Shown here piece by piece: positions 829 to 46,153 of a DNA stretch of 64,000 nucleotides (its first letter is position 1; the number at the start of each line of letters is the position of its first letter). This stretch comes from Candidatus Micrarchaeia archaeon (lineage in GTDB: Archaea; Micrarchaeota; Micrarchaeia; Anstonellales; Bilamarchaeaceae): assembly GCA_046331685.1 (NCBI GenBank), contig JAXLQI010000003.1, positions 102,960-166,959 on the forward strand. Direction: 5' to 3'. A program made the translations under genes and the position numbers. The notes below the pieces were generated by a model. The model was not told where the DNA came from, did not search any database, and saw only the letters and a list, made by a program, of their open reading frames with translations.

Positions 829-1035
829 ATAGCATAGGCCTGGCATATCTTTAAAAAGCCGATATATCATATTATCCTAGTCAGCGGTCATAGGAAGGGG
901 GTAAAACCTGATCCCTTTTCGAACTCAGAAGTTAAGACCCTTCACGGTGACACGAGTACTGCCCTCCGGGCGGGAAAATTCACTGCTGCTGACACTCATC
1001 TTCATTTTTATATTCCCTCCAGTCTTATTCTTGTC

Positions 1036-3256: not shown

Positions 3257-4362
3257 AGCCCGAACAGCCCTTTCTTTTTCTCATTCCCTTCTTTTTCCAG
3301 CTCCTCGAGGAGATCCTTCTGCCTCCTGCTCAGGCTCTTCGGCACCTCGATCACGACCCGCACAAGCTCATCGCCCCTGCCGCCCCTGCCAAGCCGGGGC
3401 ATCCCCTCCCCTTTGAGGCGGAAGACGGTGTGCGAGCTGGTCCCCGGAGGGATGTGGAGCCGGTCATGGCCGGAGAGAGTGGGCACATCGATCGCCCCTC
3501 CAAGGGCCGCCCTGCTGAAGCTTATCGGGACTTCGATCCGCAGGTCGTCGTTGTCGCGCTCGAAGACCTCATGGCTGCCGACGTCGACGCGCACGAACAG
3601 GTCCCCGGGACCGTCGCGCCCGTACTCCCCGAGATCCTCGAGGCGCAGCCTCATCCCGCTGTGGATCCCGGCCGGGATTCCGACTTTTATGTGCTCGTTC
3701 GAGCTCGCCTTCCCATTGCCGCCGCAGCTGTGGCACGGCTTCTCGACCACGCTGCCTTCGCCCCTGCACCTGCCGCAAGTCGTGACCGTGAAAAATGACA
3801 TCGGGCCCGCCCTCCTGGCCTGCTGGACCTGGCCTCTGCCCCCGCATGTGCCGCAGGTCTTCCTCTCGCTTCCTGGTTCGGAGCCGCTCCCGCCGCATCT
3901 TGAGCAGGCCTTGCTCCGGTGATAGCTGATATCTTTCTTGACGCCTTTCGCGGCTTCCTCGAGGGTTATCCGGACCACGGTCTCGAGATCAGCTCCATAT
4001 TCCCGCGCTCTCCCTCCTCGCCCCCGGGGACCGAATGACCCGAATATCCCCCCGAAAGGGTCGAAGCCGAAGCTCCGGAAGACCTCCTCGAAATCAGAGA
4101 AATCCGCGCTCCTGAAGATGTCCTCCTGCGAATACATCTGGTCGAAGCCGGCGTGGCCGTACTGGTCGTACTCCGCCCTTTTCTTCTCATCGCTCAGCAC
4201 CGCGTATGCTTCAGATATCTCCTTGAACCTCTCAGTCGCCGATTCGTCCTTGTTCCGGTCCGGATGGTATTTCAGCGCAAGCTTTCGGTATGCGCTCTTT
4301 ATCTCGTCTGCGCTCGCGTTCCTCGCTACGCCGAGGATCTCGTAATAGTCCCTTTTTGTCAT
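3253..4362 (-). CDS. dnaJ: Molecular chaperone DnaJ
   Basis: J-domain DYYEILGV...KYHPDRN. Gly-rich region. Four CxxCxGxG zinc-finger repeats. 369 aa. Confidence 0.9.
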
Positions 4363-13926: not shown

Positions 13927-13930
13927 AAAA

Positions 13931-14038
13931 CGCCTTGACCGGGATTCGAACCCGGGTCGCGAGAGTGACAGTCTCGTATGCTAGACCACAGAGCGCCCTG
14001 AGCGGTTTCAAACGCTGGGGGCTCTACACTATCAAGGC
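13931..14038 (-). tRNA. tRNA-Asp(GUC) with a putative 35-nt non-canonical intron in the D-loop
   Basis: The 7/7 acceptor stem GCCUUGA/UCAAGGC pairs across 108 nt. T-arm CCGGG-UUCGAAU-CCCGG. Anticodon arm CGAGA-CUGUCAC-UCUCG. Removing 13989-14023 gives a 73-nt cloverleaf with D-loop AGUGGUCUA. Confidence 0.7.
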
Positions 14039-22869: not shown

Positions 22870-22994
22870 TCCCGTCGGCCTGACTTGAACAAGCAACCTC
22901 ACCGTTTCCGCCTTTTGGAAAGGCGGCCCAAAACTCGTCAAACCGAGTAAAGGCAAAACTACAGCGGTGCGCTCTACCATTGAGCTACGACGGG
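22870..22994 (-). tRNA. tRNA-Tyr(GUA) with a 53-nt canonical intron at 37/38
   Basis: Acceptor CCCGUCG/CGACGGG. D-arm GCUC-AAUGGUA-GAGC. Anticodon stem CACCG/CGGUG with loop CUGUAG|intron|A. T-arm GCUUG-UUCAAGU-CAGGC. Confidence 0.8.
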
Positions 22995-30347: not shown

Positions 30348-33300
30348 CTACGGTTTCCTTAAAGCCCGCTCTTTCAGCAGGAGCATGTAAACGAACGAAT
30401 TGAAAACCGATAATGGATCATGCGTCTCGACATTATAGTAATCCTTCGCCCCTTTGATGAACGACCTCTGGTCGCCGCAGGTTTCGATCATATCCACATC
30501 ATCCCCGGCGACCCCCACGTGGGGCAGGTACTCGTAACCCGGCGCCACCCAGTAATAAGAGATATCGACATTCACCCGCTTGCCGTATTTCACCTCCAGC
30601 AGGGCCTTTGTGAATGGCAGGAGGGTCTTGTAGCCGGTATCGACGAGGACTCCGTCGAAGACCTTCTTCTTCGACGGGTCGGTTATCCCGCTCTTGGCAA
30701 GATAACTGAGCAGTTTTTCGCAATTCGCTTTGAACTGCGGATCCATATGCATCGCGCTCTTGATCTGCAGCCGGAGGCTGTTCATGAAATGCCCGAACAG
30801 GTCGGTCTGCATGCTTGCCACCGTAGCCGTCTTAGGGTCAGCAGAAGCCTTGAATACCGAATAGGCATACTGGTTGGCCTTGAAGACCATATCCGAGATG
30901 TTATGCGCATCGTTCTCGAAGAAATCCTTGCCGAGGGAGGTCCTGGTTATCAGCGCGCCCTTGGGCATCTTATGCCCTTTCCTGCTCGCTATCGTCCCGT
31001 CGACCACCATGAACGCGGCTCCATCCCTCCAGAGGTATACCCTGGACTTGTCCGGATAATGGCTGACGATCGCATCTGTGGACAGGAAGACCCTCTCCAC
31101 CACATGCTCGAGGGGACTCACTCCGAATCCTTCAGTGATGGGTATCTGCTTGTCTATGGCTACGCTCTCGACGCCGAATATCCCGGCGTTCTTGTTGATT
31201 ATGAGCTGGAGCTGGGCCTTCGAGAGCTTCTTGGCCGTGTGTTTCGTCGCGAAATCCATCAGGGCTTTTTCGAGTTCGGCCATCTTCTTGACATCCTTGA
31301 ATGAATGCCCGATCGTGAGCAGGTCCTCGGGTACCGACGATTCCAGATCCGCCCTGAAGCTGTCGATGCTCTTGAACCTGCTTTGGGCCTTGAACTCGCT
31401 CTCGACTAATCTGCTATATGCTACATCCGGCGATTCTTTTTCAACGGGTTTGGGGGCAGGGAGCTTCGGTTTCATCCCTGATCTGCTCAGGCGGAGATGC
31501 TCTGTAGCGATCTCGATGGTCGTCCAATCCGGATGCTGGTCCTTTATTATCAGCATCTCGAAATAATCCGAGCTCACGACCATGAAACCCGTGATCGCTG
31601 CTTTCCCCAGCTTGTCGAATTCCTCGGCGAGCCCCTTCACCCGGGCCGCGTCTTCGATTGCATGCCGCTTTATCTCTAGCTCCCGCTCATAATAGATGAC
31701 CCTCGACTGGCGCAGGGTCTCTTCCTTGACCGCGTTCCCGCCGTGATCGAGCTTTTCGGCGATTTTCTTCACCGCATCGCGATATTCGGGATAGTCCTTG
31801 GTCACTTCCGCCAGGGTGAACCCTGCCTTCAGATTCTCGACGAAATGCTCGAGGGTTCCGGCGATCTTCCCGACCCTATCCTTGGTCATACCGCCGCCGA
31901 CAAGATCCTCAATGCCCTCAAGCATCCTGACCCTCGGGCTTTTCCTCGCAGGTATGCCCACCCTCTCGGATTTGTCGCCGACCGTGATGTCGAATTCGAA
32001 CGCATCGATTTTCTCAGACATACTAGTCATGATCTTCGATTTCCCGGCGAATACCATGCCAGGTGGCAGGACTGTATCAGGCGCCGCAAGCAACTCATCA
32101 GCGTACGCTGAAGGTTCTGTGATCAGTTCTGATTCTTTGACCGCCATAGGGGTCTTGGAGATCTCTTTCGGACCGGCGCTCTTCTCCTTCGGCGGCACGA
32201 CCGGCGTGATCAGATCCTCTTCCGTGACAACCATGGGCGTCTCTGAGATCTCCTTTGGTTTGAAGCCTTTTCCGGTCGCAGCTGGTTCTGGCCCTTCCCC
32301 CCCGGGTGGCGGGGGCAGTGCGGCCGGCTCGGCAATCTTGGGCGCCGGAAGTTTCCCGGTCTTGGCCGCTCCTCCCTTCCCTGCGACAGTCCCTTCGGCC
32401 GGCCCGTATCTCAATTCTTCCCAACGCTCGTTGATGAAGTCGTTCAGGCCGCTGACCGGCCTTTTCTTGCCTAGGTACCAGATGATGTCCAGGTGCAGCT
32501 GCCTGACAAGGTCCCGTGTCCCGGGAATGACCTTCCCAGGCAGGCGTATGACGACGAAATGCTCCTCTTTTTGGGTTTTGGTCGCGTCCTCATTCGCTTC
32601 CTTGGGGCTGACGTCCCCGGTGTGCGTTTTCAGGTACTCGTGAATGGGGATAACCCGATCATAAGCTACCACGACCCCCTCGTTTTTCTGTATCCCTGCC
32701 GGAATCTTGACGTGGATGTCATACTCTCCGATCTCCTTCATGCTTTTCGCTCCAAAAGGCATATCATAGCTCATGACGCCATCAGTGCCTACATGGATTC
32801 CACGGGGGTCGTTTGTGGTGAGCCTGTCGAAATATCTGATGCCCTCTGCCGTCTCGGCATACCCCTGGAAATCGAAAGTCTTTGCAAGGCCTTTTTCCGA
32901 CTTTATCGCGAAAAGCTGATCGTATTCTTCGCCCGAAAGGAGCGGCAGGCCGTTATGCATGCGGCCTTTCCAGCCTCCTGCTTTTACCAATGCTTCTGCC
33001 GGCGTCTCCTCGGGAGCCATCTTCGGGGGTGCCGCAGGCTCGGTTTTTTCGAATCCCGTTGGAATGGGTGCTTTCTTTGCCAGCTCTTCCACGGACGCTG
33101 ATTCAGGCACCGGAACAGGAGGCGCTTTCTTGGCCGGAGCGGTCTTCTCCACCACCTCTTCGGGGGGAGGAGCGGGTTTCTTCGCCAGCGGCGTCTTGGC
33201 CTCTTCAGCTGGAACGGGCGGCTCTACAGCGAGCGCCTTTTTCTTCCCTAATGCAGGGGTGGCCTCAGGCTGCTTCTTCGGCGGTTTGGCCGTGAACTCC

Positions 33301-36300
33301 TCGGCGCCTGCGGCAAGGGGCAGTCCGGCCGGAGTCGCCACCTTCTTCGCCATAACCGGCGTCTTATCCTCTTCGGTGCCGATCGGTGTTTTCGCCGTTT
33401 CTTTTATCCTGCGCTCGACGGCGCCCTTCAGCCCCTCGACGTATTCAGCCTGGTCACGGCGTGCTGCATCCATCAGCGCCAGTATCTCGTCGCCGTAGAG
33501 ATGGACCCGTCCATCGACCCTCTCGACGGTCCGGACCCTGCCCCCGTGGATGAACAGGGAGCCCACTTTCGGGGCATTCGGGCTTGTCGTGTCGAAGCCG
33601 AGCCCGAAGGGCTTCCCTTCGTGGGCTTCGACGATCGGTTTCACAGGGCTCTTCAGGTCGGACGGGGCGAGCTTGTCGGCTTTGAGGTCCAGCCCGGCTT
33701 TCTCTCCTAGCAGCTCTGCCATCATGGCTTTCGCGGCCGGGACCTCACCTTGGAACAGGTCCTTCCCGTTCCCCATCTTGATGGACGCCGCCTTGTCGAG
33801 CGCAGAGGCCATGTCGATGAGCATGCCGCTCGTTGCATCAGCGAAATCCCTGTTGAAGTCGGTGAAATCCGGTTTCCCTTCCTTGGATCCGATCCTGGCC
33901 CCTATGCCGTCCATGTCTATCGGCTGGAACGTCAGCTCTACCTCGCCGCTTGCGCGCCGCACCAGCATCACTGTGGTGTTCCGGTCGAAACGGTCCATCA
34001 GCAGGATCCTTCTCGAAAGCTCGTGATACGTGTTCCAGGCCTTGAATATCTTCTCCCTGCCCTCTTTCGTCTGGGCTAGCTTGTAGAACATCGCCGCTGC
34101 GGCGTTGTCGGCGTCAGGCTTCTTCAGGACCTCATCCCTGAACATGGCAACCCCCAGGACTGTCACGTTCTCCGTCTTCCCGTCCGATGGCAGGCTCGCC
34201 ATGACCTTCTTGCCTTCGTAGGCTTTCACCAGGGATCCGTCCGGCAAGGTTATCGTGGTTTCGGAGTGCCCTGTTTTCGGGGATGCCAGGTCATGTATGT
34301 CCAGCGATATCCCGTAGTCCTGCATCAGCGGTTTTCCGTCGACCATCAACCCTGTGTCGTATGCATACCCGTGCAGGGTCTCGGGCGGGACGAGGCCTTT
34401 GGAAGCTGCCAGTTCCTCCCCGAATTTGACCGGGAGCATATCCTCGGGCTTCACGAATATGCTCCGCCCGTCCGACATCTTCACCTTGAAGATGCCCCTC
34501 AACCCGCTCAGGGGCTCGACGCTGCTTATCTTCTTGCCGCCGAATCCCGGGATCGCCGCGATCCTCGCAGGCAATCCGCCCCTCACGATCAGATCCAGGA
34601 ATACCTTGACCTTGGAGTCATATTCGAATGTCTCGCTCTCGAGCCGTATCCTGTGGGGCCCGACCTTGTCCGCCAATTCGGCTTTTTTCGGGTCCCCGTC
34701 CGCCATCCCCGCGACCTGGCCCTCCGTGTGCTCGACCCATCTCTTCAGCTCGATGATGCCGTCCCGGTCTTTCCTGAAAGACGAGATGTCGATCCCGAAA
34801 GCGTCAAGGACATTCAGCCTTCCTTCCGATCCGCCCTCACCGTAGATCTCTTTCATCAGGGCCGGGTCCTGGCCGTTCTTCTTTGTATAGGCGGCGATCG
34901 CTCCGAATTCCTCCCCGGGAGGCAGGGCGGCCTTAGCCTCATCGATTTTTTTCAGGTGCCCCAGCTCTTTCGCGCCCCTGAACCATTCCATCGCCATGCG
35001 AAGCTTCATCATGGGATTGTTTTCCAGGATCATGTGGTCCAGCTTCCAGGCCAGGTACGGATCGGTCGCCCTTATGCTGTCGATGATGAACTTTCCTGAG
35101 GGTTTTGTGAATATGCTACCGCTGAATTCGGCTAGGCCCTCGGCCGTCCCCCCTGCTAGGAGGTGCGAATACGCTTTTCCTATGGACGTGCTGACGCTCT
35201 CTCCAGGCGCAGCTTTGAGCAGGAAATCCGCGATGACGGCCCGGGTGACCGGGTCGGCAGATTCGAAGACGTTTTTCACCAGGCCGTTCTTCCTGATGGC
35301 TTCGACCGAGGACGATCTCGGATCGCCGGTCTTGGCCCATTCTGCGAGCCTGGCCTCGGCTTCGCTCATCGATATGTCGCCGCGCATCCTGAGCGAGCCC
35401 TCGGCCACCTTGAGGAGGTCTGTGAGCTTCGGGCTTCCGCTTTCTATCTCGAGCCTCGCCGCCGCGATCCCGTCGCTGTCCACCCCCTCTATGTTCTTCT
35501 TGTATTCCGAGATCTTCTCCATGGCCGGCGGGGGTTCCTTCGGTTTCGGGACAGCCTTGGACGAGATGCCCTCCGCCTCTGTCCAGGATGCAGGGTCAGT
35601 CCTGCCCTCGAGCTTCTTCGCGGCTTTCCGCAGGGCCACTATGTCGGACTCCACGGCATCCGCTTCGGCATGCTTGCCTTCAGCGCGGAGTATCGACGCT
35701 TGGTCGGTGAGCTTGTTCGATCTCTCGAATAGCATCTCCGAAGGCGTCTTAGGTTTGGCAGACGGGACGGGTTCGGGGTATTTCGCGGCAGGGCTAGGCT
35801 CCTTCATCGGCGCCGGTTCGATCGGTTTCGCGGTGCCAGGTTCCACACCGCCTGGTTTGATCCCGCTTTTGAGCGTCGGTTCTATTGCCACAGGTGCTGC
35901 GACCGGGGCGGTTTCCATCCCAGGTATGGTCGCGGCCATCTCCATCCTGATGCTGTCCCAGGTCTTCGCTGCGAACCCTCCCGGGTCCTCCGAGTTTGTC
36001 TTGTAGAGCTCTTTGAACACCGTGGCAGCATCGGCGGTCAGGATCGTCCTGCCGTCCGTGTCCATCGGCACGTTCTTCTTCCCGTTGATGAAATTCTTCC
36101 CTTCGATCCTGAACATCTCATCGACATCGTGGAGCTCTGCCGCGGCCTCGGCCGGGGCTTCCTCTCCCTTCAGGAACGCCTCCCTCCTTTTAGCGAGGGC
36201 TGCCTTCTGCCCCATGGTGAGCTTTGCGTTGAGGCCTATGCCTATCGGGGTCCCGGCATTGGAAGTGAGGGCCTTCTCCACCCCGTCAACGAATCCAGGT

Positions 36301-39300
36301 GATTTTCCTATCTCCTCATGCCAGGCTTTCGCGCCTTCCTTGATGCTCGAAAAGGATTCTGTGAAAAGCGTCTTATACGTCTTACCGGACGGCCCAAGGT
36401 CGGTCAGCTGCATCTGGAGCAGCACATCCATCGTGCCCCTCAATTCGGTCCCGTACGATTCGTGGAGTTCCCCGAAATCCAGCTTCCCCCCGCTTTCTTT
36501 GGCCAGGAACGCCGCGCCGGAATCCGTGTCTATCCTGCCGAACCTGAGGACCATCGCCCCCTTCTCATCGGATACCACCAGGTGCCCGAGTTTCTCCAGG
36601 TGGGCGGCATCCTCTTTGGAGACCCTTCTGGTCATCGCCCATATGTTCCCGTGGTGGCCGTCTGAGAAGCCGACGCTCATGAGGCCGGTCTGGGTGTATC
36701 CGTACTCCTTCATGACCAGTTTCCAGAACAGCTCGGGATTCTCGGCCCTCATCTTCTTCAGGGCAGGATTCGCTTCGACGAACTTGGAGAACTGCTCGAT
36801 CGCCATGGCCGACTCGGTCTTCTCGTGGATGATCTTCCCGCCGGCCTTGGCGTCGCCCTCATGGTATCCCATGTGCTGCATGATCCCGAATCTGGCCCTG
36901 CGCCCTCGGTCGAACAAAGACAGCTCTTTGCCGCCGTGGCCGGTTATCACTTCCGGGGCCGCGATCCCCGCATGTTTTTCCGCAAGCGTCGAGCCCAGCT
37001 TTTCTGCCGAGAGATCCTGCGCCTTCGCTATGAACGCGACTTTCTCCTTCCCCGGCGTCTCGACTGTGATCTCGAAGGCTCCCTGGGCGGCGAATATGAA
37101 CCTGACTTTCTTGACCTTGCTTCCTGCCGGGATCTTCTGGTTCGCGAAAGTTATCTCGCCTTTTCCTATCATGGAGGCGAGATCGCTGGTCAGCAGCCCG
37201 ATGGCTCGCGTCGTCGCGCTTCCTGCCTCCAGCTCTATCCCGGCGCCATGAAGCGCGTCGCTGATTTTGTTTGTAAGCTCCCAGACGTCCTCATTCTCCA
37301 GCGCTGCCTTTTCGATTTTGGCCTTGAGCTCCGGAGCCTTTGACGGTTCAGGAGCTAGCTTGGACAATGCTTCGGAGTTCGCGATGGCACTGAGACGTAG
37401 ACCGATATCATATTTCCCTTTCTTCTCAAGAGCGTCAAGGGCCTTTGCCAGGTTCTCAGGCTTCCCGATCCCTTTCTTCAGGAGGGCTCCGGCGAGGTAA
37501 TCCTCATCTGCCGGTTCCCGTCCCTCGCTCTCGGCTCGTCCTTTCGCGAACTCGGATGCCGCGATATCCACCGGATTCTTCGAAGCTTTGAGTTTGAGGC
37601 TTATCGCCTCTTTTGTCATCTCCCCGATTAATTCGAATGCGGCTTTCTCCAATGGCGCTCCCTGTTTCGCCGCTTCCTCTTTGATGGCCGCTGTGAACTG
37701 TTCATCAAGTTCCGTCGCAGGCGGTTTGTTCCCTTTCGCCATCTCTGCATACGCCTTGGCGGCAGCCTTCTGGCCTTCCACTGCCTTAGCGGCGGTTTCG
37801 GGGCTTACACCTTCGCCCACAAGCTTTTCGATCGCATTCTTCCCGACCTCGTCGAGCGCTTTCTCTCCTGTCGATAAGACCGGTTTCGCTTCGATAGTCT
37901 GTTTCACCGGCTCTATCTTCGGCCCGCCTGACTTCACATCCCTTGCCGCTTCCATCCCGAGCTCGTAGGAAAGATCAGCAGGCGAAAGTTCGGAAGCCTT
38001 GATGACTTTGAAGAATTCCGCCTTGCCTGAGAATTCGGGCGGGACCTTCCCGCTCTTCGAATACTCATTGTAGGCATCGGTGAGCGATTTCGTCCTTGCT
38101 TCGGTTTCGGAAGGTGCGATTTTTTCCACCGCTTCAGGCTTTGGCGCTTCCGCAACTGCTGCCTCGGGTTTGGTCACCCCACCGGCTTTCTTCTTCGCGA
38201 GCGCTTCTTTGAGCTTCGACAGCGCCTCCCCCTTCACGAATGTCTTCGCAGGGGATTTCGCCTCGCTGAAAGCCGCCTCCGGGGACTTCCCCTTCGAACG
38301 CGCTTCGGTGTATCTGATGACGAAGTCAGGTGATGGGGCGGTCGCCTCCTTGAAAGCCTCGGCCGGCCCCTTTCCTTCGTTGCGGGCTGACGAATAAAGG
38401 AGGTGAGGCATCTCGCCTGCGGTCATCATCTTGCTCAGGTGGCCTGCCTCCAGGTCGAGCATCAGCTTCTTGCTCTCGGGAGGGAGACCCTCTGCCGCTT
38501 TGCTCATCTCCGAGATCCCAGCCCTGACCTCGATGGGGTTCTTGCCGGACATTACCTTGGCGTAGGATTCACCGGCGCCGCCCATGCTCTTGCGGAACCC
38601 TGCCAGTTCCTTTGCAGCCGCGTGCTCCTCCACGGACATGAACTCGCTCCGGAATCCGAACAGGATCTGCGTGAACTGCGAAGCGCGGGAGCTGTATTTC
38701 GGCACCCCTCCCTCATGGACCGAGAGGGCCATCCTCTTCGACACGCGCGCCTGCGCCCAAGGAAGAAGGACGGAGGTCGAGGCCCCGCTCATTCCGGTGA
38801 AGACAAGCCCCTGCCAGCCCATCTCGCCTTTCTTGTAAGCATCGTAGATCTTGGGCGCCTGGAATACCAGGAATTCGCCGGCCCCTCCGTAGAACATCGA
38901 TTTCTCAAGTCCCCACGTTGCGCCTTTGTAAGCGTAATACCCAGCTTTGGCTAACCCGCCCGCGGGGGCTTCCGCCGCGGCAAGGAAAGTCAGCCCCTTC
39001 AGCGCTGCTATCCGGTGCCCAATCGGCACGACCGCCCCGACAGCGCTCAGGCCCGCCCTGATATATAATTCGGTGCTCCATTTCCCTGATCTCTCGGCCT
39101 CCTCATAGGCTTCGGCCACGCCCTTGACGCCGGTGACGACGAAATACGCCCCTCCGGTCGCAGCTCCGAGGATCATATCGCCTGCGAACGTCCCTGCAGC
39201 CTTCCCGAAAGCGTAGCGGGCGCCGATGTCGCCCATTTCGCTCTTCAGTCCCTTGGTCTTCGCGTCAGAATCGGATATCTCTCCCTTGTCGGTGAAAGAG

Positions 39301-42300
39301 ACCATCCCGCTGGACTTGAGCGTCGCATCCGATCCGCTGATGTCGCCAGCGATCGCGAGGTCTCCGGCTTTCTTGGACAGAATCATCCTCCCGAGGACGA
39401 CGGCCACGAACTCCTTCTCGGTCTGGACGCCGGTCCCTGCCACCGATGGGGTCTTGGTCCCGAAGCCGATAGATATGTCGTATCCTTCCACGGTCGGAAC
39501 AAGGACATTATCAAGCAGCATATCGAAGTTCTGGGCCGCCTTCATCAGCCTCTCCCTCTGGTCCGGGGAGAGCCTCTCCAGCGATTCGAATCTCAGGCCG
39601 TCGACCGTCTCCTTGGCGTCCAGGCCCACCCTCCAGAAGAAGATATGGCCCGCATCTTTCCCCGCCTTCTCTATGTCTTCCTTGTTGCCCTCCTTGGCAT
39701 CTCCGAACATGTAGGATGAAGTGAGCAGCATCTCGGACCTGCTTACCGACATCACTTCCTTGCCGAAGTTGATTTTCCTCGGGACGCGCCTTCCATGCTC
39801 GTCCACAGCTGAATAGACGGATATGTAAGTGCTTTTCTGGGGGCCGGTCTTGAAGTCGCCGGTGGTGTGCTCGTAAACGGTCGCCGTGACCTCTTTGTTG
39901 GTCTTGAGGGCAGTGAGGAATGTCTCGTCGTTGTCCAGGGCGGTCATCGCATCCTCAAGGCAGATCGCGCTCATCTCCCTCGCGGCTGTCGATGTGTCGT
40001 ATTCGAGCTTGAAATACGGGAGCTTCATCCCGGTCCTCTTCTCATACTCCTTCGCGATCTCTGCGAAATCCTCGGCCTTCTCCAGCCTTCCGAACTCAGA
40101 AAGATCGCCTTTGAGCATGAACCGCTTGCCCTTCTCTATGAACGCTTTTGCGAACTCCCTTGCGGCCGTCCTCTCCTTCTCCTTCCCCACCGTTTCACGG
40201 TATTTCTTGTCTGCCGCTTCCAGGACCGGAGGATTCTTCTCTCCTGCGAGGATCGAGTCCACAGCCTTATGGTTGGCGCTTGCGGTTCCCTCCCAATCCT
40301 TCTCGCTCCGCTCGTAGCTGGCGCCGAGCTTGTCGAGCGGGGATTTCAGGGCCTTGTTCCTCTCATCCCTCAACTTCACGGCATCGTCTTTCTCTACGAC
40401 CCCATACGGGGCCTTTTCCAGGAACGCGCCATCCACGCCCGCCTTTTCATCACGGGCCTTCCACTTGTTGAAATCAGATGTGGCGGCTTTGATCCCGTAT
40501 CCCTCGGCCATCTTGGCCTTGAACATGTCAGATTCGAGCGTCCTGAATCCTTTCCTCGCTCCGATCACATCTCCTGCCTCAGCGGCATCGCTGAGGGCCA
40601 TGAGCCTCTTGCCATAGAACGATGTATTGAAGTATGGGAGCCTGCCTTTCTCGACGACGTCCTTGATGGAGCCTTTCTCATACGCTCCGGCCCCGGGCAC
40701 CGGGATGGATTCCAGCATCAGCCTCGAAAGGAGCTTCTCCCTCGCTCCGAGCCCGTCCTTGCCCGGAGGGATCATCGCGAGCTCTTTCTCATATCTGTAC
40801 CTGCTGTTCGGGTCAGGTATCAGTCCGACCAGCACTCCGAGCTCAGGGTTCCCGATCGTCCCACGGTCTCCTCCTGCGAAGAACTTGATCCCGTTGTCGG
40901 CATAGCCCTTCTTTATATCGTACTCGTCCAGGTGCATCTTCGCCCCCTGGAACCTGATATCGAAATTCGTGTGGACCTTCGCCGAATATGTCTCGGCATC
41001 CGCGAACCGCTCGGACCAGTTGAGCGAGATGACGGTGGAATGCTTGGTCTTGTAGCCGTTGAGGTCGAGCCATTTCTCCCCGCGCTCGTCCGTGGTCTTG
41101 ACGCCCTGCGATCCGGTGAGGTCCTCATACAGCTTCTGCAGTTTTGCCGGATCGTCGCCTGCGGCCGCAAGGCGGTCGCCTTTGCCGTGGTATGAGACGA
41201 GGTCGTTGTAGAGCGCTTTCAGCTTCCCCTGGTCTTCGCCCGCTTCTGCGTACCTCTCTGAGAAGACCTCCTTCATGGGCTTCTGCCCTTCCCTGAGGTA
41301 AGTCTCTTTCGGGAAGTTCGCGATCATATCCCTGACCAGGAGCTTTGTAAGGACGCTCTGGACCCTGCCTATGTCCTTCTTGAAGGCCTCCTGCTCGAGC
41401 CATATCGCTCCGTCACGCTGTTTCTTTATCTTCTCCTCACGGGAGACCAGCTCGCTGCCCGCTGCGTTCAAGCCTATGCCCCGCTCGACAAGCTTCTTCT
41501 TCCTCTCGGCGGTCAGCGGCACCGGCTTCGAGTCCGCCCCGATGAGCTTCTCGCCTTTCTCATCGGCATCATGGCCTTCGCCGATCGCGAGGAACGTCTT
41601 CGCGGCAGCGTCGAGCTCGGCCCTCCCGCTCTTCTTGTTTATGGTGTCTATCCTGGTGACGCTCTTGTGGAGCTTGGCGAGAGAATCGGCCGCCGCGTCC
41701 GCGCTCAATCTCTTATCATTTCCGCTCGCTATGAGCGATGTTATTTCTTGGTCTAAGAGTGACTTGTATAAGGCGTTCCGAAGCTCGTCGGCCTCCTTCG
41801 CCTTGCCCTCTTTCCCGAGCGAATCCGCTTTCTTGAGAGCGAGATCGACCTTCTCCTTCATCTCCGGCGGAAGCCCGCTCGAGAGTTCGTCGGTCCTCTT
41901 CCTCACGAACGCCGGCCCGGCGTCATCCGCCGCTTCGTACTCCTCTTCAAGGTCGACCGACATCAGCAACTCGGATGTCCCTTTTTCGCGGAGGGCCGCT
42001 GCCCTGCCGACCGAGCTTGTCATGGACACGAAGTCCGAGCCTTCCGAAGCATATTTCTTCTTCATCGCCTCGCGGTCCTTCTCGGCCCCTAGTATCGCGA
42101 TCCCTTTCGAGTCGCCGGCAGCTTTTTCCTGGAGGAACGAATCCCGGGTCAATTCGTGCCCCAGCTTGACCGCTGATTTAATCCCGGCTGCTTCGACAGC
42201 GTCTTCCAGCTCTGCCTTCGTCGGTTCCCTTCCGAGCTCTTTCTTCAGGCTCGCCTCGGTCTCCGCCCTCTTCTCCTTCCCGAGGGCTTCAGTCACCGAT

Positions 42301-45300
42301 CCTCCTGCGAGTATGGCTTTCGCGAGCGGCGCGTCTATGGCGCCTTCGGGCGGCTTCCAGCCTTTCGGTCCGATATCGAGGATCCTTTTGCCTCCAAGGG
42401 TATTGTTGGCAGAATATTCCCCGAGGTATCTCTCTGCGCGGACCATCCTTTTCGTGCGTTCTGAAGCTCCTTCAGGGCTCAGCTTGCCTTCATCCATGGC
42501 CGCGTCCTTGGCGTACATCGCCGCCATGTCGAATATTATCTTGGCCTCCTTCTTCAGCCCGGAGCCCGCGGTCCTGATCGCAAGGTCGAAATACGCCTGG
42601 GCATTCGTCTTCATCGCCGGATTCGTTATCTTCGCCTCCAGCTCGGTCCTCTCCTTGTAGATGGATAAGACGAGCAGGTCCGGATCGTTGAAGACAGGGA
42701 TGCCTGGCAGCTTGGAGTTGGCCTCTCCCACCCTCGCTATCGCCAGCACCCTTTCCCGGTCTTCTTTCTTCACGCTGAGATATATCTCGGCGATGTTCTG
42801 GAATATCATCCCGTTCTCCAGGTCCCCGGACATGATCCTCCGCGCAGAGCTCCCCAGCATCTCCAGGACCGCTTCCTTCTGGTCCTTGGGCGCGGCAGGA
42901 TTGAGCATCTCGCTATACGACTTGACGAGTTTCTCCATCGCCTTGACGCGTGATAACTCTTCCCTTGCCGCAAGATCAGCGATCGTCAGCTTCTTCTCCT
43001 TGAGGTACTTCTCGACCGCGCCCTTGAACTCCGGGTCCTCTGCCATCTGCTTCTTTATCTTCGCTTCAGAGGCCGCGATATCCTCCTTCGATATGCGGTC
43101 TTCGCCCTTGACAAGGCGGTCCTTCTCCTTCTTCAATTCACCGATCAGCCAGCCGAGCTCAGCTTTCCCGGGAGCCTTCTCGCCCATCGATTTATGGGCC
43201 TTGGTCAGCTTGATCAGGTTCCCTTCCAGTATGAGATAGCCCCGGGCGATGACCTCGGCAAGCTCGGGCTTCTTCGATATCACGGCGATGACCTGCTTGA
43301 TCTCATTCTTCTGCTCTGGAGTGCCTTTGGAGAATCGCAGAGCGAGCACCGCGATTGAGTTCATCGCCCCTTTATCCCAGTCCTTCAGGTATCCTTCCAT
43401 CCCCTTATCGAATATCGCTGCCGTCTCGCTGAGAGCCGGCTCTTTGATGCCGGACAGTATGTCCTTCCTGACCTTCCCGACGAAACCCAGGATCGTCATG
43501 CCCTTCTCTATCGCCTCTTTCGTCGCCTTGCCCGGTGCCTCAAGAGGCTTGAGCGCCGCTTCTATCCCATCTTTGATCTCCTTGGGCAAGGTCTTATCGA
43601 GAAGGATCTTTTTCAGTCCGGAGACTATCTCGGCGGCGAGTTTCAGTTCATCCGCCGCAGGAGCTTTGGCTTCAACCGCTGCGGGTTTGGGGGCAGTGGG
43701 TTTGACGGCCGGTTCTTTTGGTTTTGCGACCGGTCCTGTAGGGACTACAGTGGGGGGAGTAACCGCCGGCCCTTTGGGCACTGCAGCCGGAGCCTTTGGA
43801 GCCTCAGGAGCAGCCTTCTTCTCCTCGGGCGCAGGAGCGAGCTTGAATCCAGGCCCTTTTGAAGGGGGCTGCATCTTCGGCAATGGAGTGTGGTACGGTT
43901 TCCCTTCCTCCAGCTTGTCCGCTTTCTTCTCGCGCTCCTCCTTGCCCTTCCCTGCGTTCCTGAACGACTCGGCGAGCGCCTTTACCCTCGGGTCGTTCCT
44001 GTCCTTTATCCCGAGGGCCCGCATGGCGGCTTCTTCGACGCTGAACCCCCTCCCCACCAGCCACTCCATGTTGCGGAGGTTCATCCCATCTTCGAGATTG
44101 GAAGACATCTTCTCAAGGGCGCCGGCGACCTCCTTGTCCCCGCCTTTCTCCGCGTATTTCTTCCCCAGCTCGTACTGCTTCACGGCGGTATCCATCCCGC
44201 CGCCGCGGAGCACGCAGTCCAGGGCGCGTCCGAAGATCTTCATCGCGCCGTCCTTTATCTCCTTGGCTTTGCCGGCGAGCTTGCCTTCCGAGTCGAATAT
44301 CTTGCCGACAAGCTCCGAGGCGAACGTCATCTTCTCTAGCTCGGCGATCGTGGCTGGCGGTTTGTCCTTGAACATCTTCGCGATCGCTTCGGCTTTCGCT
44401 TTCAGTATGCTGTCTTTGAACCCGGCAGCGGCTTCGGCGGCTTTCTTCTGGTATTCCGCCCCGACAGCCGAGACCGCCTGCGCCACGGTCTTTTTCCTCT
44501 CGGAGAGGTCCTTGCTTATCTCATCGAGCTTTTTCCGCAGCTCCCCTTTGGCCTCGCTGTGCCTGGCGAGGATCGTCTGCTGGAGCTTCGCTGTCTCGAT
44601 GAGGCTCTTGACCGCCTCGGCGCGCTTCTCCTTCGTCGCGCCGGCCTTGCCGAATGAATCTATCAGGCCTTTGACCCGAGGGTCGTTCTTGTCCTTTATG
44701 CCGAGGACCCTCATCGCGGCTTCTTCCGCGCTGAGGCGCTTCGCCGGATCGGTGTTGCTGACATGCCTCTCCATGGCGGCTATGTTGTGCGCCAGGCTCA
44801 GGGCGGCTAGGCCGCGGGCGAAGACCGCGACGCTTTCCCTGGCCTCCTCGCCGGTCTTGTCCTTCAGGATCTTGAGGGCGTTCTTGACGTAGTCTATCTT
44901 CTCTTTCGTCTCCTCCTTATCCTCTTTCCCTGTCTCCTCCTTCTTTTTCTTCTCTTCCTCGAGCTTCTTCTCCAGCGCTTCCAGGTCGTCCTTGAGCTTG
45001 CCTAGCTGCTCCTTCGCGGATTCCTGCATCGCGCTCATCATGAGGGCGCTCACCATCCCCTGGAAGGCGAGCACGGTCGCGGTCTCCGGGCTTCCGCCGC
45101 TTATGGCCGATTCGACAGCGCTGGTCTGCCGGTTAATGCCGTCCATCCGTCCGGCATGGGCCTCCACATGGGCATTTGCCTCGTCGGTGTTGCCGAGGGG
45201 GTGGCTCGACATGGTGAGGACTTCCTTCTCCACCCTGGCTGCCAGAGTCGGATCTGCGCTGAGGGCCTCAGGATGGTCGGCGATGTGCTCGACCGCGTTC

Positions 45301-45812
45301 AGGGTCGCCCTTCCCAGCGAGAGATGCGCCGCCCTCTCGGTCGGGTCGTCTGAGAGCCCCGCGAAGTTCCAGAAATTGTTCCGGAACATGTCTATCGTGC
45401 CCTGGGGGGCTCCTGACGCCTCGAGGATCATCTCGCCCCTGATCGTCCTGCCGAGGCCGATGATGGCCATCCTGAGGTCAGCCCCGTCCCTCTCGGCAGC
45501 CGCCATATCCCCGGACTTGATGTGGCCTTCCCTCCGGAGAGCGATGTCTTCGATCGTGGCGAGCTCCCTGCCATGGGTGGACCGCATGTTCTCGGGGACG
45601 ATGGCCTCCACCCTTGATCTTATCCCTGCGGCATCGGGAAGGCTGGTCCCGAGGCTTCCGGCAGCGCTCGAGAACCGGTCGAGCATGACCCTCGTAGAGG
45701 CGTCGACGGATCCTATGTTGGCTTTCGAGGCAGCGAGACGGTCGGGTGTCAGGTCGAGCCCGCCGAATTGAGGGTGGCTCGATCCGGGCGTATCCATCGT
45801 CTTCTGCGCCAT
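30348..45812 (-). CDS. Giant protein of about 5,150 aa, of unknown function. It is rich in K/E/A low-complexity and probable coiled-coil sequence, with internal repeats, Pro-rich linkers, a central hydrophobic cluster and globular regions with no family I can name.
   Basis: A single uninterrupted 15.6-kb ORF in a GC-rich genome. The track start at 45998 overlaps the upstream gene. The Met at 45810-45812 (MAQKTMD) lies 5 nt after the upstream stop. There is no N-terminal signal peptide. Confidence 0.85.
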   Translation of the reverse strand: MAQKTMDTPGSSHPQFGGLDLTPDRLAASKANIGSVDASTRVMLDRFSSAAGSLGTSLPDAAGIRSRVEAIVPENMRSTHGRELATIEDIALRREGHIKSGDMAAAERDGADLRMAIIGLGRTIRGEMILEASGAPQGTIDMFRNNFWNFAGLSDDPTERAAHLSLGRATLNAVEHIADHPEALSADPTLAARVEKEVLTMSSHPLGNTDEANAHVEAHAGRMDGINRQTSAVESAISGGSPETATVLAFQGMVSALMMSAMQESAKEQLGKLKDDLEALEKKLEEEKKKKEETGKEDKEETKEKIDYVKNALKILKDKTGEEARESVAVFARGLAALSLAHNIAAMERHVSNTDPAKRLSAEEAAMRVLGIKDKNDPRVKGLIDSFGKAGATKEKRAEAVKSLIETAKLQQTILARHSEAKGELRKKLDEISKDLSERKKTVAQAVSAVGAEYQKKAAEAAAGFKDSILKAKAEAIAKMFKDKPPATIAELEKMTFASELVGKIFDSEGKLAGKAKEIKDGAMKIFGRALDCVLRGGGMDTAVKQYELGKKYAEKGGDKEVAGALEKMSSNLEDGMNLRNMEWLVGRGFSVEEAAMRALGIKDRNDPRVKALAESFRNAGKGKEEREKKADKLEEGKPYHTPLPKMQPPSKGPGFKLAPAPEEKKAAPEAPKAPAAVPKGPAVTPPTVVPTGPVAKPKEPAVKPTAPKPAAVEAKAPAADELKLAAEIVSGLKKILLDKTLPKEIKDGIEAALKPLEAPGKATKEAIEKGMTILGFVGKVRKDILSGIKEPALSETAAIFDKGMEGYLKDWDKGAMNSIAVLALRFSKGTPEQKNEIKQVIAVISKKPELAEVIARGYLILEGNLIKLTKAHKSMGEKAPGKAELGWLIGELKKEKDRLVKGEDRISKEDIAASEAKIKKQMAEDPEFKGAVEKYLKEKKLTIADLAAREELSRVKAMEKLVKSYSEMLNPAAPKDQKEAVLEMLGSSARRIMSGDLENGMIFQNIAEIYLSVKKEDRERVLAIARVGEANSKLPGIPVFNDPDLLVLSIYKERTELEAKITNPAMKTNAQAYFDLAIRTAGSGLKKEAKIIFDMAAMYAKDAAMDEGKLSPEGASERTKRMVRAERYLGEYSANNTLGGKRILDIGPKGWKPPEGAIDAPLAKAILAGGSVTEALGKEKRAETEASLKKELGREPTKAELEDAVEAAGIKSAVKLGHELTRDSFLQEKAAGDSKGIAILGAEKDREAMKKKYASEGSDFVSMTSSVGRAAALREKGTSELLMSVDLEEEYEAADDAGPAFVRKRTDELSSGLPPEMKEKVDLALKKADSLGKEGKAKEADELRNALYKSLLDQEITSLIASGNDKRLSADAAADSLAKLHKSVTRIDTINKKSGRAELDAAAKTFLAIGEGHDADEKGEKLIGADSKPVPLTAERKKKLVERGIGLNAAGSELVSREEKIKKQRDGAIWLEQEAFKKDIGRVQSVLTKLLVRDMIANFPKETYLREGQKPMKEVFSERYAEAGEDQGKLKALYNDLVSYHGKGDRLAAAGDDPAKLQKLYEDLTGSQGVKTTDERGEKWLDLNGYKTKHSTVISLNWSERFADAETYSAKVHTNFDIRFQGAKMHLDEYDIKKGYADNGIKFFAGGDRGTIGNPELGVLVGLIPDPNSRYRYEKELAMIPPGKDGLGAREKLLSRLMLESIPVPGAGAYEKGSIKDVVEKGRLPYFNTSFYGKRLMALSDAAEAGDVIGARKGFRTLESDMFKAKMAEGYGIKAATSDFNKWKARDEKAGVDGAFLEKAPYGVVEKDDAVKLRDERNKALKSPLDKLGASYERSEKDWEGTASANHKAVDSILAGEKNPPVLEAADKKYRETVGKEKERTAAREFAKAFIEKGKRFMLKGDLSEFGRLEKAEDFAEIAKEYEKRTGMKLPYFKLEYDTSTAAREMSAICLEDAMTALDNDETFLTALKTNKEVTATVYEHTTGDFKTGPQKSTYISVYSAVDEHGRRVPRKINFGKEVMSVSRSEMLLTSSYMFGDAKEGNKEDIEKAGKDAGHIFFWRVGLDAKETVDGLRFESLERLSPDQRERLMKAAQNFDMLLDNVLVPTVEGYDISIGFGTKTPSVAGTGVQTEKEFVAVVLGRMILSKKAGDLAIAGDISGSDATLKSSGMVSFTDKGEISDSDAKTKGLKSEMGDIGARYAFGKAAGTFAGDMILGAATGGAYFVVTGVKGVAEAYEEAERSGKWSTELYIRAGLSAVGAVVPIGHRIAALKGLTFLAAAEAPAGGLAKAGYYAYKGATWGLEKSMFYGGAGEFLVFQAPKIYDAYKKGEMGWQGLVFTGMSGASTSVLLPWAQARVSKRMALSVHEGGVPKYSSRASQFTQILFGFRSEFMSVEEHAAAKELAGFRKSMGGAGESYAKVMSGKNPIEVRAGISEMSKAAEGLPPESKKLMLDLEAGHLSKMMTAGEMPHLLYSSARNEGKGPAEAFKEATAPSPDFVIRYTEARSKGKSPEAAFSEAKSPAKTFVKGEALSKLKEALAKKKAGGVTKPEAAVAEAPKPEAVEKIAPSETEARTKSLTDAYNEYSKSGKVPPEFSGKAEFFKVIKASELSPADLSYELGMEAARDVKSGGPKIEPVKQTIEAKPVLSTGEKALDEVGKNAIEKLVGEGVSPETAAKAVEGQKAAAKAYAEMAKGNKPPATELDEQFTAAIKEEAAKQGAPLEKAAFELIGEMTKEAISLKLKASKNPVDIAASEFAKGRAESEGREPADEDYLAGALLKKGIGKPENLAKALDALEKKGKYDIGLRLSAIANSEALSKLAPEPSKAPELKAKIEKAALENEDVWELTNKISDALHGAGIELEAGSATTRAIGLLTSDLASMIGKGEITFANQKIPAGSKVKKVRFIFAAQGAFEITVETPGKEKVAFIAKAQDLSAEKLGSTLAEKHAGIAAPEVITGHGGKELSLFDRGRRARFGIMQHMGYHEGDAKAGGKIIHEKTESAMAIEQFSKFVEANPALKKMRAENPELFWKLVMKEYGYTQTGLMSVGFSDGHHGNIWAMTRRVSKEDAAHLEKLGHLVVSDEKGAMVLRFGRIDTDSGAAFLAKESGGKLDFGELHESYGTELRGTMDVLLQMQLTDLGPSGKTYKTLFTESFSSIKEGAKAWHEEIGKSPGFVDGVEKALTSNAGTPIGIGLNAKLTMGQKAALAKRREAFLKGEEAPAEAAAELHDVDEMFRIEGKNFINGKKNVPMDTDGRTILTADAATVFKELYKTNSEDPGGFAAKTWDSIRMEMAATIPGMETAPVAAPVAIEPTLKSGIKPGGVEPGTAKPIEPAPMKEPSPAAKYPEPVPSAKPKTPSEMLFERSNKLTDQASILRAEGKHAEADAVESDIVALRKAAKKLEGRTDPASWTEAEGISSKAVPKPKEPPPAMEKISEYKKNIEGVDSDGIAAARLEIESGSPKLTDLLKVAEGSLRMRGDISMSEAEARLAEWAKTGDPRSSSVEAIRKNGLVKNVFESADPVTRAVIADFLLKAAPGESVSTSIGKAYSHLLAGGTAEGLAEFSGSIFTKPSGKFIIDSIRATDPYLAWKLDHMILENNPMMKLRMAMEWFRGAKELGHLKKIDEAKAALPPGEEFGAIAAYTKKNGQDPALMKEIYGEGGSEGRLNVLDAFGIDISSFRKDRDGIIELKRWVEHTEGQVAGMADGDPKKAELADKVGPHRIRLESETFEYDSKVKVFLDLIVRGGLPARIAAIPGFGGKKISSVEPLSGLRGIFKVKMSDGRSIFVKPEDMLPVKFGEELAASKGLVPPETLHGYAYDTGLMVDGKPLMQDYGISLDIHDLASPKTGHSETTITLPDGSLVKAYEGKKVMASLPSDGKTENVTVLGVAMFRDEVLKKPDADNAAAAMFYKLAQTKEGREKIFKAWNTYHELSRRILLMDRFDRNTTVMLVRRASGEVELTFQPIDMDGIGARIGSKEGKPDFTDFNRDFADATSGMLIDMASALDKAASIKMGNGKDLFQGEVPAAKAMMAELLGEKAGLDLKADKLAPSDLKSPVKPIVEAHEGKPFGLGFDTTSPNAPKVGSLFIHGGRVRTVERVDGRVHLYGDEILALMDAARRDQAEYVEGLKGAVERRIKETAKTPIGTEEDKTPVMAKKVATPAGLPLAAGAEEFTAKPPKKQPEATPALGKKKALAVEPPVPAEEAKTPLAKKPAPPPEEVVEKTAPAKKAPPVPVPESASVEELAKKAPIPTGFEKTEPAAPPKMAPEETPAEALVKAGGWKGRMHNGLPLLSGEEYDQLFAIKSEKGLAKTFDFQGYAETAEGIRYFDRLTTNDPRGIHVGTDGVMSYDMPFGAKSMKEIGEYDIHVKIPAGIQKNEGVVVAYDRVIPIHEYLKTHTGDVSPKEANEDATKTQKEEHFVVIRLPGKVIPGTRDLVRQLHLDIIWYLGKKRPVSGLNDFINERWEELRYGPAEGTVAGKGGAAKTGKLPAPKIAEPAALPPPPGGEGPEPAATGKGFKPKEISETPMVVTEEDLITPVVPPKEKSAGPKEISKTPMAVKESELITEPSAYADELLAAPDTVLPPGMVFAGKSKIMTSMSEKIDAFEFDITVGDKSERVGIPARKSPRVRMLEGIEDLVGGGMTKDRVGKIAGTLEHFVENLKAGFTLAEVTKDYPEYRDAVKKIAEKLDHGGNAVKEETLRQSRVIYYERELEIKRHAIEDAARVKGLAEEFDKLGKAAITGFMVVSSDYFEMLIIKDQHPDWTTIEIATEHLRLSRSGMKPKLPAPKPVEKESPDVAYSRLVESEFKAQSRFKSIDSFRADLESSVPEDLLTIGHSFKDVKKMAELEKALMDFATKHTAKKLSKAQLQLIINKNAGIFGVESVAIDKQIPITEGFGVSPLEHVVERVFLSTDAIVSHYPDKSRVYLWRDGAAFMVVDGTIASRKGHKMPKGALITRTSLGKDFFENDAHNISDMVFKANQYAYSVFKASADPKTATVASMQTDLFGHFMNSLRLQIKSAMHMDPQFKANCEKLLSYLAKSGITDPSKKKVFDGVLVDTGYKTLLPFTKALLEVKYGKRVNVDISYYWVAPGYEYLPHVGVAGDDVDMIETCGDQRSFIKGAKDYYNVETHDPLSVFNSFVYMLLLKERALRKP

Positions 45813-45817
45813 ATGCT

Positions 45818-46153
45818 TCACTCGGGCCGGATGCCCTCCGCTATCCTGACCAGATCCCGGAGCCTTTGGATGCGGGTCTCGAAAGTATCCGTGAACTTTG
45901 GCTTGCTGGCCTCCCACCCCTTCAGGGCGTCCAGGGCTTTCTGGTACCTCTCGAAATTCTTCGCGAGCTCCGGGGGCTTCCCGCCGGATGCTTTCCATGC
46001 CGCGAGCGCCTCCTCGAGCTGGGCGATCATCTTCTTCACCCGTTCGCGGGTCTCGGCTTCGACCTGGCCGATCGTGGATTCGTTTATCTTGGGGTTGAGG
46101 GCTTCGGCGACCAGCGAATTCTCGTATCTCTCCAATTCCTCTGGACTTGCCAT
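45818..46153 (-). CDS. Hypothetical 111-aa helical protein, first gene of the giant-gene operon
   Basis: MASPEELERYENSL... with charged, helical composition. Its stop lies 5 nt before the giant-gene ATG. Confidence 0.5.
   Translation of the reverse strand: MASPEELERYENSLVAEALNPKINESTIGQVEAETRERVKKMIAQLEEALAAWKASGGKPPELAKNFERYQKALDALKGWEASKPKFTDTFETRIQRLRDLVRIAEGIRPE

Follow-up and report, generated by a model that had tools for sequence, protein, structure and literature searches.

Giant prokaryotic proteins are known to be enlarged by internal duplication and to have a mosaic C-terminal part, and typical giant surface proteins consist of many repeats of beta-rich adhesin domains. Here we describe a giant protein of a Candidatus Micrarchaeia archaeon that carries, in its N-terminal region, two copies of a short module with the motif GIKDxNDPRVK. 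The protein is encoded in a 64,000-nucleotide stretch of DNA (GenBank assembly GCA_046331685.1, contig JAXLQI010000003.1, positions 102,960 to 166,959), which we call the window. Whereas giant surface proteins have many adhesin repeats, the helical copies in the Micrarchaeota protein number two to three and are old and strongly diverged. The region that contains them resembles alpha-helical repeat scaffolds (TPR/Sel1-like, HEAT-like, 14-3-3-like and designed proteins) in its all-helical prediction and its recurrent helix-turn-helix units, but it has no significant fold match and belongs to no Pfam repeat family, and its units are spaced irregularly, about 195-270 amino acids (aa) apart, instead of standing in tight tandem. 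In our view the two module copies are probably paralogues, the products of an ancient duplication within the protein that involved a larger helical unit, with a core kept by selection and with loops that likely act as docking or hinge surfaces. The open reading frame (ORF) and the two copies are located in the window as follows.

30348..45998, minus strand: giant ORF, 5,216 codons, frame intact over 15.6 kb
44601..44732, minus strand: module copy A (M_A), aa 423-466, SAEEAAMRVLGIKDKNDPRVKGLIDSFGKAGATKEKRAEAVKSL
43911..44042, minus strand: module copy B (M_B), aa 653-696, SVEEAAMRALGIKDRNDPRVKALAESFRNAGKGKEEREKKADKL
44544..44786, minus strand: A-side extent of the significant A-B alignment, aa 405-485, including the upstream NIAAMERHV
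43854..44081, minus strand: B-side extent of the same alignment, aa 640-715, including NLRNMEWLV

An earlier note on this DNA had pointed out two near-identical segments about 230 aa apart. Both peptides that it quoted are present in the minus-strand ORF, and their similarity is far above chance. Its coordinates and residue numbers were right to within one residue, but its start at position 43931 cut off about seven residues (about 20 bases) from the end of copy B. Copies A and B are identical at 27 of 44 aa and at 89 of 132 nucleotides (67% of the DNA). Internal repeats were sought with 200-aa pieces as queries against the giant protein in which the piece in question had been masked (BLASTP, composition-based statistics), and the only strong one was the match of aa 405-485 to aa 640-715, with 42% identity and an E-value of 2e-12. 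The Smith-Waterman score of A against B was 132, compared with 26.2 +/- 4.9 for shuffled sequences (z = 21), and none of 300 shuffles scored as high. The back-translated GIKDxNDPRVK pattern occurred twice in the window against an expectation of 0. Lysine and glutamate make up 20-28% of the residues in the module region, which is the kind of composition that could produce similarity by chance or through low complexity in a K/E/A-rich protein. The composition-based E-value and the shuffling results refute such an origin, as does the exact 11-residue motif, which is not low-complexity, and we give it practically no credence.

The divergence of the two copies bears on their age. In the 23-codon core, S-x-EEAAMR-x-LGIKD-x-NDPRVK-x-L, the Nei-Gojobori proportion of synonymous differences (pS) was 0.63, and the synonymous (dS) and non-synonymous (dN) distances were about 1.3 and 0.08, respectively; these values come from one sequence pair with 16 synonymous and 53 non-synonymous sites and are indicative only. 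The 21-codon tail that follows the core had a dN of 0.59 at the same dS. Synonymous sites were saturated throughout the A-B comparison (dS about 1.3-1.5), suggesting that the duplication is old and is neither an assembly artefact nor a recent conversion tract. The source is a metagenome-assembled genome (MAG), so a recent duplication or an assembly artefact had to be considered; however, a DNA identity of 67%, saturated synonymous sites, unrelated flanks and a frame intact over 15.6 kb refute this explanation, which we regard as hardly conceivable. The low dN of the core against a saturated dS suggests that purifying selection has preserved the core of each copy. These data are thus indicative of an old duplication with a 23-residue core that appears to be under purifying selection.

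We searched 1.84 billion representative proteins with aa 1-1200 of the giant protein using HMMER, and recovered the giant protein itself and eleven distant relatives. Ten of these are large (1,257-7,279 aa) and match only aa ~790-1200 of the query; the eleventh, P0008, is a 127-aa fragment that matches aa 78-190. The phmmer E-values against the ten large relatives ranged from 7e-23 to 1e-4, and the matches were colinear in both the local phmmer alignments and a MAFFT alignment. The giant protein belongs to the family formed by these relatives (P0002-P0012), since it has their colinear core at aa ~790-1200, including the AYFDLA...LGDY block. The relatives with a named source come from Candidatus Bilamarchaeum and other Micrarchaeota; examples are VVC04780.1 (Candidatus Bilamarchaeum dharawalense, 2,699 aa), MFN7991186.1 (5,879 aa), MEW6036321.1 and MEW6722054.1, and MFN7991186.1 is a paralogue encoded in the same MAG as the giant protein. 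The family is one of 2,700-7,300-aa proteins found so far only in Micrarchaeota. Its members and the giant protein have in common a conserved head and core (aa ~790-2400), a helical unit that we call U, a segment of the form riA.GE...DP.FK..IE, the AYFDLA block and a hydrophobic block rich in glycine and alanine, and some members have kinase-like modules. Extra N-terminal copies of U or of an AGAPPELI element also occur in other members. In Bilamarchaeum dharawalense (locus L002, 8001-24100), another ORF follows one base past the stop codon of the 2,699-aa homologue; it is longer than 3,193 aa and has a metallophosphatase domain, and the giant protein may be divided between two genes in this organism.

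The EEAAMRxLGIKDxNDPRVK module of the giant protein, in contrast, is in none of the other family members, and aa 1-780 of the query have no counterpart in the family except for the P0008 fragment. A hidden Markov model (HMM) of the two copies gave nothing below an E-value of 0.06 against the family members, the block of aa 401-800 had no phmmer match within the family, and in the exhaustive HMMER search there was no other protein whose best stretch covered aa 405-715. As the module is missing from the other members, it is private to the giant protein and is not a feature of the family. The earlier note had proposed a search for GIKDxNDPRVK in other giant archaeal proteins, and in the collections that we searched none carries the motif. 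The corresponding DNA pattern had one match in 596 Gb of species-representative genomes, in the ORF of a Bacteroidetes M19-type dipeptidase (AAGIKDQNDPRVKK). This match (locus L001, 2705-2737, plus strand) consists of the exact 11-residue pattern and is accompanied by no other similarity; by our own estimate about 0.05 chance matches are expected in a collection of this size, and we judge the match to be presumably coincidental. In the metagenomes of the Joint Genome Institute (JGI), the DNA pattern had no match and a search with the peptide pattern yielded no relative. A search of species-representative genome contigs with aa 1-1500 also yielded no relative. Word-indexed searches with aa 380-720, with aa 1601-2400 and with the two-copy alignment were negative, but these negatives count for little because the giant protein itself was not returned either.

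How far the duplication extends was examined with the family alignment. The earlier note had argued for the duplication of a module of about 230 aa in the N-terminal third. On self-alignment, pairwise similarity is limited to aa 405-485 and 640-715, although it is highly significant there, and the flanks up- and downstream of the two copies show none (z from -0.9 to 1.6, Smith-Waterman against shuffles). A plain 230-aa repeat is therefore absent. In the alignment of the ten large relatives, however, U is a conserved 60-aa helical unit with the consensus P.E.R..A..IY.RAL.AL..G....A...LA..Y......I..LS, and profiles of it detect what pairwise Smith-Waterman comparison does not (z at most 1.3). 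The repeated units in the N-terminal region are the following.

44088..44264, minus strand: U_B, aa 579-637, a copy of family unit U directly upstream of copy B
44775..44852, minus strand: U', aa 383-408, a weakly supported, truncated version of the first U helix directly upstream of copy A
43827..44576, minus strand: super-repeat R_B, aa 475-724, colinear with columns 21-310 of the family head profile
42915..43649, minus strand: super-repeat R_C, aa 784-1028, the family head in its canonical form and orthologous position, E 1.5e-13
42996..43115, minus strand: M_C, aa 962-1001, LVKGEDRISKEDIAASEAKIKKQMAEDPEFKGAVEKYLKE, a family-conserved segment, E 7e-8 to the family segment
43629..43901, minus strand: linker rich in proline, alanine and lysine, aa ~700-790, between R_B and R_C, with a block-mean predicted local distance difference test (pLDDT) score of 35-43 for aa 700-720

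U_B scored 32.1 bits against a U profile built without the query, whereas the best of 300 block-shuffled N-termini scored 5.9 (profile E-value 8e-10; hhalign E-value 1.8e-7, probability 94%). R_B aligned with the family head at an hhalign E-value of 5.7e-7 and a probability of 92% in a permissive alignment, and in the stretch from U to the module it is about 35 columns shorter than that head. R_C contains its own U (U_C, aa 850-912) together with M_C. The colinear R_B alignment places copy B on the family segment riA.GE.l.........ir..m..DP.fK..iE.fa (query aa 962-1001). The best match of the two-copy module profile on the 454-column family core is this same segment (P 0.02; 0 of 120 column shuffles reached the score), and it is colinear with U. 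The repeat around copy A, R_A, is strongly eroded and stops near aa 470. All three repeats have the pre-U helix, the first U helix and the N[IL]xxME element arranged in one and the same order. Extra U copies are found in other members with a long N-terminus: P0003 (335-392, E 4.5e-10), P0009 (621-658) and P0011 (596-645).

We read R_C, R_B and R_A as three putative copies of one ancestral helical unit. The proposal of the earlier note would then hold in a changed form: the duplication is real and reaches beyond the 44-aa island, and repeated helical units do occur in the N-terminal ~1,000 aa, but there is no pairwise similarity over 230 aa, the indels are big and the repeat around copy A is weak. 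It could be argued instead that only a segment of about 45-80 aa was copied into unrelated helical contexts, by segmental insertion or an old gene-conversion tract, and that the U-like matches reflect generic helical periodicity. Such a short event would account for the sharp ends of the pairwise similarity and for the weak U' beside copy A. It would not account for U_B, which lies directly upstream of copy B and far exceeds the shuffle maximum, for the colinearity of aa 475-724 with the family head, for the colinear position of the best family match of the module, or for the shared order of the three elements in the three repeats. We consider the copying of a short segment unlikely.

The structure of aa 380-720 was predicted with AlphaFold2 from the single sequence (overall pLDDT 67, predicted template modeling (TM) score 0.33). 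Copy A was predicted as a helix at 424-432, the loop GIKDKND and a helix at 440-452, with pLDDT of 84-92, and copy B as a helix at 654-662, the loop GIKDRND and a helix at 670-696, with pLDDT of 81-85. In each module the loop has seven residues and the predicted second helix begins at the proline. The earlier note had described helical, K/E-rich sequence after each copy. This was borne out for copy A, which continues into a long predicted helix (aa 456-545), but copy B is followed by only about 25 helical residues and then by the Pro/Ala/Lys-rich linker, which is of low confidence. Foldseek with this low-confidence model returned generic helical-repeat proteins, none of them significant (best E 0.5, TM score at most 0.25).

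The predicted helix-loop-helix raises the possibility that the module belongs to an established class of small motifs, namely helix-turn-helix (HTH), the EF-hand calcium loop or helix-hairpin-helix. LS-x-EEA-x-x-x-LGI looks like the start of many HTH motifs and D-x-N-D...E/D like an EF-hand loop, and Pfam EF-hand_14 matched copy B at an E-value of 0.14. That match reached 12.9 bits against a cutoff of 23.7, however, and both copies have proline at position 5 and arginine at position 6 of the putative EF-hand, where D/N/S and G are expected. An HTH has a turn of 3-4 residues, compared with seven in the loop, and no HTH family of Pfam matched at E-values up to 10. A helix-hairpin-helix is rejected since the module has no G-h-G hairpin, and an NKxD-type reading of the motif was ruled out on loop length and key residues. 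No Pfam match of any kind passed the threshold for the module, even at an E-value of 10. Sequence searches of the PDB returned only noise: a Fis-family regulator at aa 202-258 of the giant protein (E 0.005), the helical P35 antigen of Borrelia (E 0.018, the best profile match) and BolA-like protein 3 (E 0.63). Membership in one of these classes is therefore very improbable.

A stronger alternative is that the duplication is real but the core is purely a structural tight turn and not a binding site. Many of the invariant residues are of the capping or core type (S, EE, G, ND-P and A/M/L/I/V/L/F), forming an N-cap, a C-cap glycine, an N-D-P helix start and a hydrophobic stripe. The helix-loop-helix is predicted with confidence in both copies, and an M19 dipeptidase with no relationship to the giant protein has the identical 11-mer by chance, which suggests a turn that forms easily. 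On the other hand, the charged and presumably surface-exposed residues R430, K435, D436, R441 and K443 are invariant alongside the capping and core residues, although such positions are expected to be free to vary in a K/E-rich helical protein, and a simple turn whose flanks have fully diverged would not be expected to have a dN/dS as low as about 0.06. The suggestion of the earlier note that the motif could be a binding site is compatible with the strong purifying selection on the core. A docking or hinge role is modestly favoured because the conserved charged residues exceed the needs of helix capping; a purely structural turn is nevertheless a possibility to be taken seriously, if a somewhat doubtful one.

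According to the interpretation that we prefer, duplication of a larger unit, both copies would go back to an ancient internal duplication within the helical N-terminal region of this Micrarchaeota-specific giant protein. The duplicated piece would have been larger than the 44-aa island, each module copy having its own version of family unit U upstream. The stretch of aa 475-724 would be a shortened paralogue of the family head, whose canonical copy is at aa 784-1028, and copy A with its truncated U a more eroded further copy. After the duplication the repeats would have diverged past pairwise recognition and undergone large insertions and deletions, with the exception of the 23-residue core. 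The two loops would most likely be equivalent docking or hinge surfaces on a scaffold rather than inert spacers, and they may share a single binding partner, which could be a separate protein or a different part of the giant protein itself.

Several observations weigh against this interpretation. Outside aa 405-485 and 640-715 there is no pairwise similarity. The scores of the repeat around copy A are weak: U' gave 1.8 bits against the U profile, which is within the range of the shuffles, with E-values of 0.013-0.04 and an hhalign E-value of 0.025. The reverse test of the link to the family was weak as well, with an HMM of the family M_C segment giving copy B an E-value of 0.26 and not finding copy A, and an alternative hhalign register sets the module on U itself (E 0.055); because of these two results the deeper origin of the module is tentative. 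An orthologue of the module was present in no collection searched. The selection estimate comes from few sites, the structural model is built from a single sequence and has low overall confidence, and the docking role is inferred only.

Other features of the giant protein are listed below.

aa 2939-3304, minus strand: PI3/PI4-kinase-like or protein-kinase-like module, with a kinase-like bilobal fold
~33819-34511, minus strand: second, divergent putative kinase-like module, aa ~3830-4060, seen from motifs only (FVKPED..., DRFDRN, FQPIDMD)
~38799-39311, minus strand: hydrophobic block rich in glycine and alanine, aa ~2230-2400, conserved in the query, P0002, P0003, P0004, P0006 and P0007
32118-32234, minus strand: short linear motif occurring twice in a proline-rich linker, aa 4589-4627, TPMVVTEEDLITP / TPMAVKESELITE, BLAST E 6e-4
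41118-41258, minus strand: tandem short repeat, aa 1581-1627, KLKALYNDL... / KLQKLYEDL..., E 0.017
~45354-45416, minus strand: AGAPPELI-like signature (SGAPQGTI in the query), aa 195-215, found near the N-terminus of nearly all family members

The module at aa 2939-3304 had no match to Pfam (PI3_PI4_kinase, Pkinase) and no PDB sequence match; in the kinase-like alignment A1, the invariant D175-x-H177-x-x-N180 and I218-D219-x-D221 appear to resemble catalytic and metal-binding loops. The second kinase-like module is shared with P0004, P0007 and P0012. The Gly/Ala-rich block may be membrane-associated; its hydropathy peak is only moderate. A motif pair similar to that of the proline-rich linker, MQVSDSDLIPG / MQVSESDLLPG, is present in the 7,279-aa relative P0007, and visual inspection showed LY.(D/E)L elements related to the tandem repeat at corresponding positions in several homologues. 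The AGAPPELI-like signature occurs three times in P0003 (aa 510, 604 and 780), and this triplication is apparently a second example of growth of the N-terminus by internal duplication in the family.

With the kinase-like modules in mind, a bolder reading can be formulated, to which we assign a low probability. The GIKDxNDPRVK pair would be a bivalent docking site on a DPANN-specific giant effector with two PI3/4-kinase-like modules, and, through contacts with a partner from host or symbiont or with a distal region of the protein itself, would position or regulate these modules. If this were true, the pair would be an interaction motif new to biology, in a class of archaeal symbiosis proteins that has not been studied.

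The window consists of archaeal chromosomal DNA and encodes ribosomal proteins L1 and L10, a nucleoside/AMP-phosphorylase-type protein and an IF-2B-family protein, together with a 5S rRNA and a tRNA that probably contains an intron. The RNA genes found are listed below.

880-994, plus strand: 5S rRNA, from the RNA gene search
13930-13995, minus strand: tRNA-Asp, from the RNA gene search
22870-22994, minus strand: tRNA match of 125 nucleotides, from Rfam, not called by ARAGORN, probably with an intron inside

The database copy of the giant ORF, MFN7991375.1, comes from a Candidatus Micrarchaeia MAG, is annotated as a hypothetical protein and has 5,154 aa, with its start at M63. Codons 1-62 of the ORF (window 45812-45998, minus strand), which precede this start, may be untranslated. 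Antisense to the giant gene and spanning both module copies is an ORF of 547 codons (window 43249-44892, plus strand), which translates into R/S/P-rich nonsense and is almost certainly spurious. The giant protein and seven homologues had nothing above threshold in Pfam or NCBIfam, and the N-terminal 2,500 aa of the giant protein had no Pfam match, including TPR/Sel1 repeats. No adhesin, signal peptide or known domain was recognisable in the giant protein. Our literature search found no paper on the family, and large or giant proteins are not mentioned in the Bilamarchaeum genome paper.

Internal helical repeats in giant proteins are of a known kind, and the GIKDxNDPRVK module is a new and so far unique example. 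Growth by internal duplication of helical units is ordinary for a giant protein; here, only the 23-residue loop region has been kept since. The wider value of the finding is as an entry point to a small Micrarchaeota family without a Pfam domain or literature, which combines a helical head, a hydrophobic G/A-rich block and kinase-like modules, and this uncharacterised family is more interesting than the repeat itself. The outlay of 15.6 kb on one gene in genome-reduced symbionts implies an important role for the protein, and the loop, present twice and strongly selected, offers the most obvious starting point for testing interactions of its lineage-specific N-terminus.

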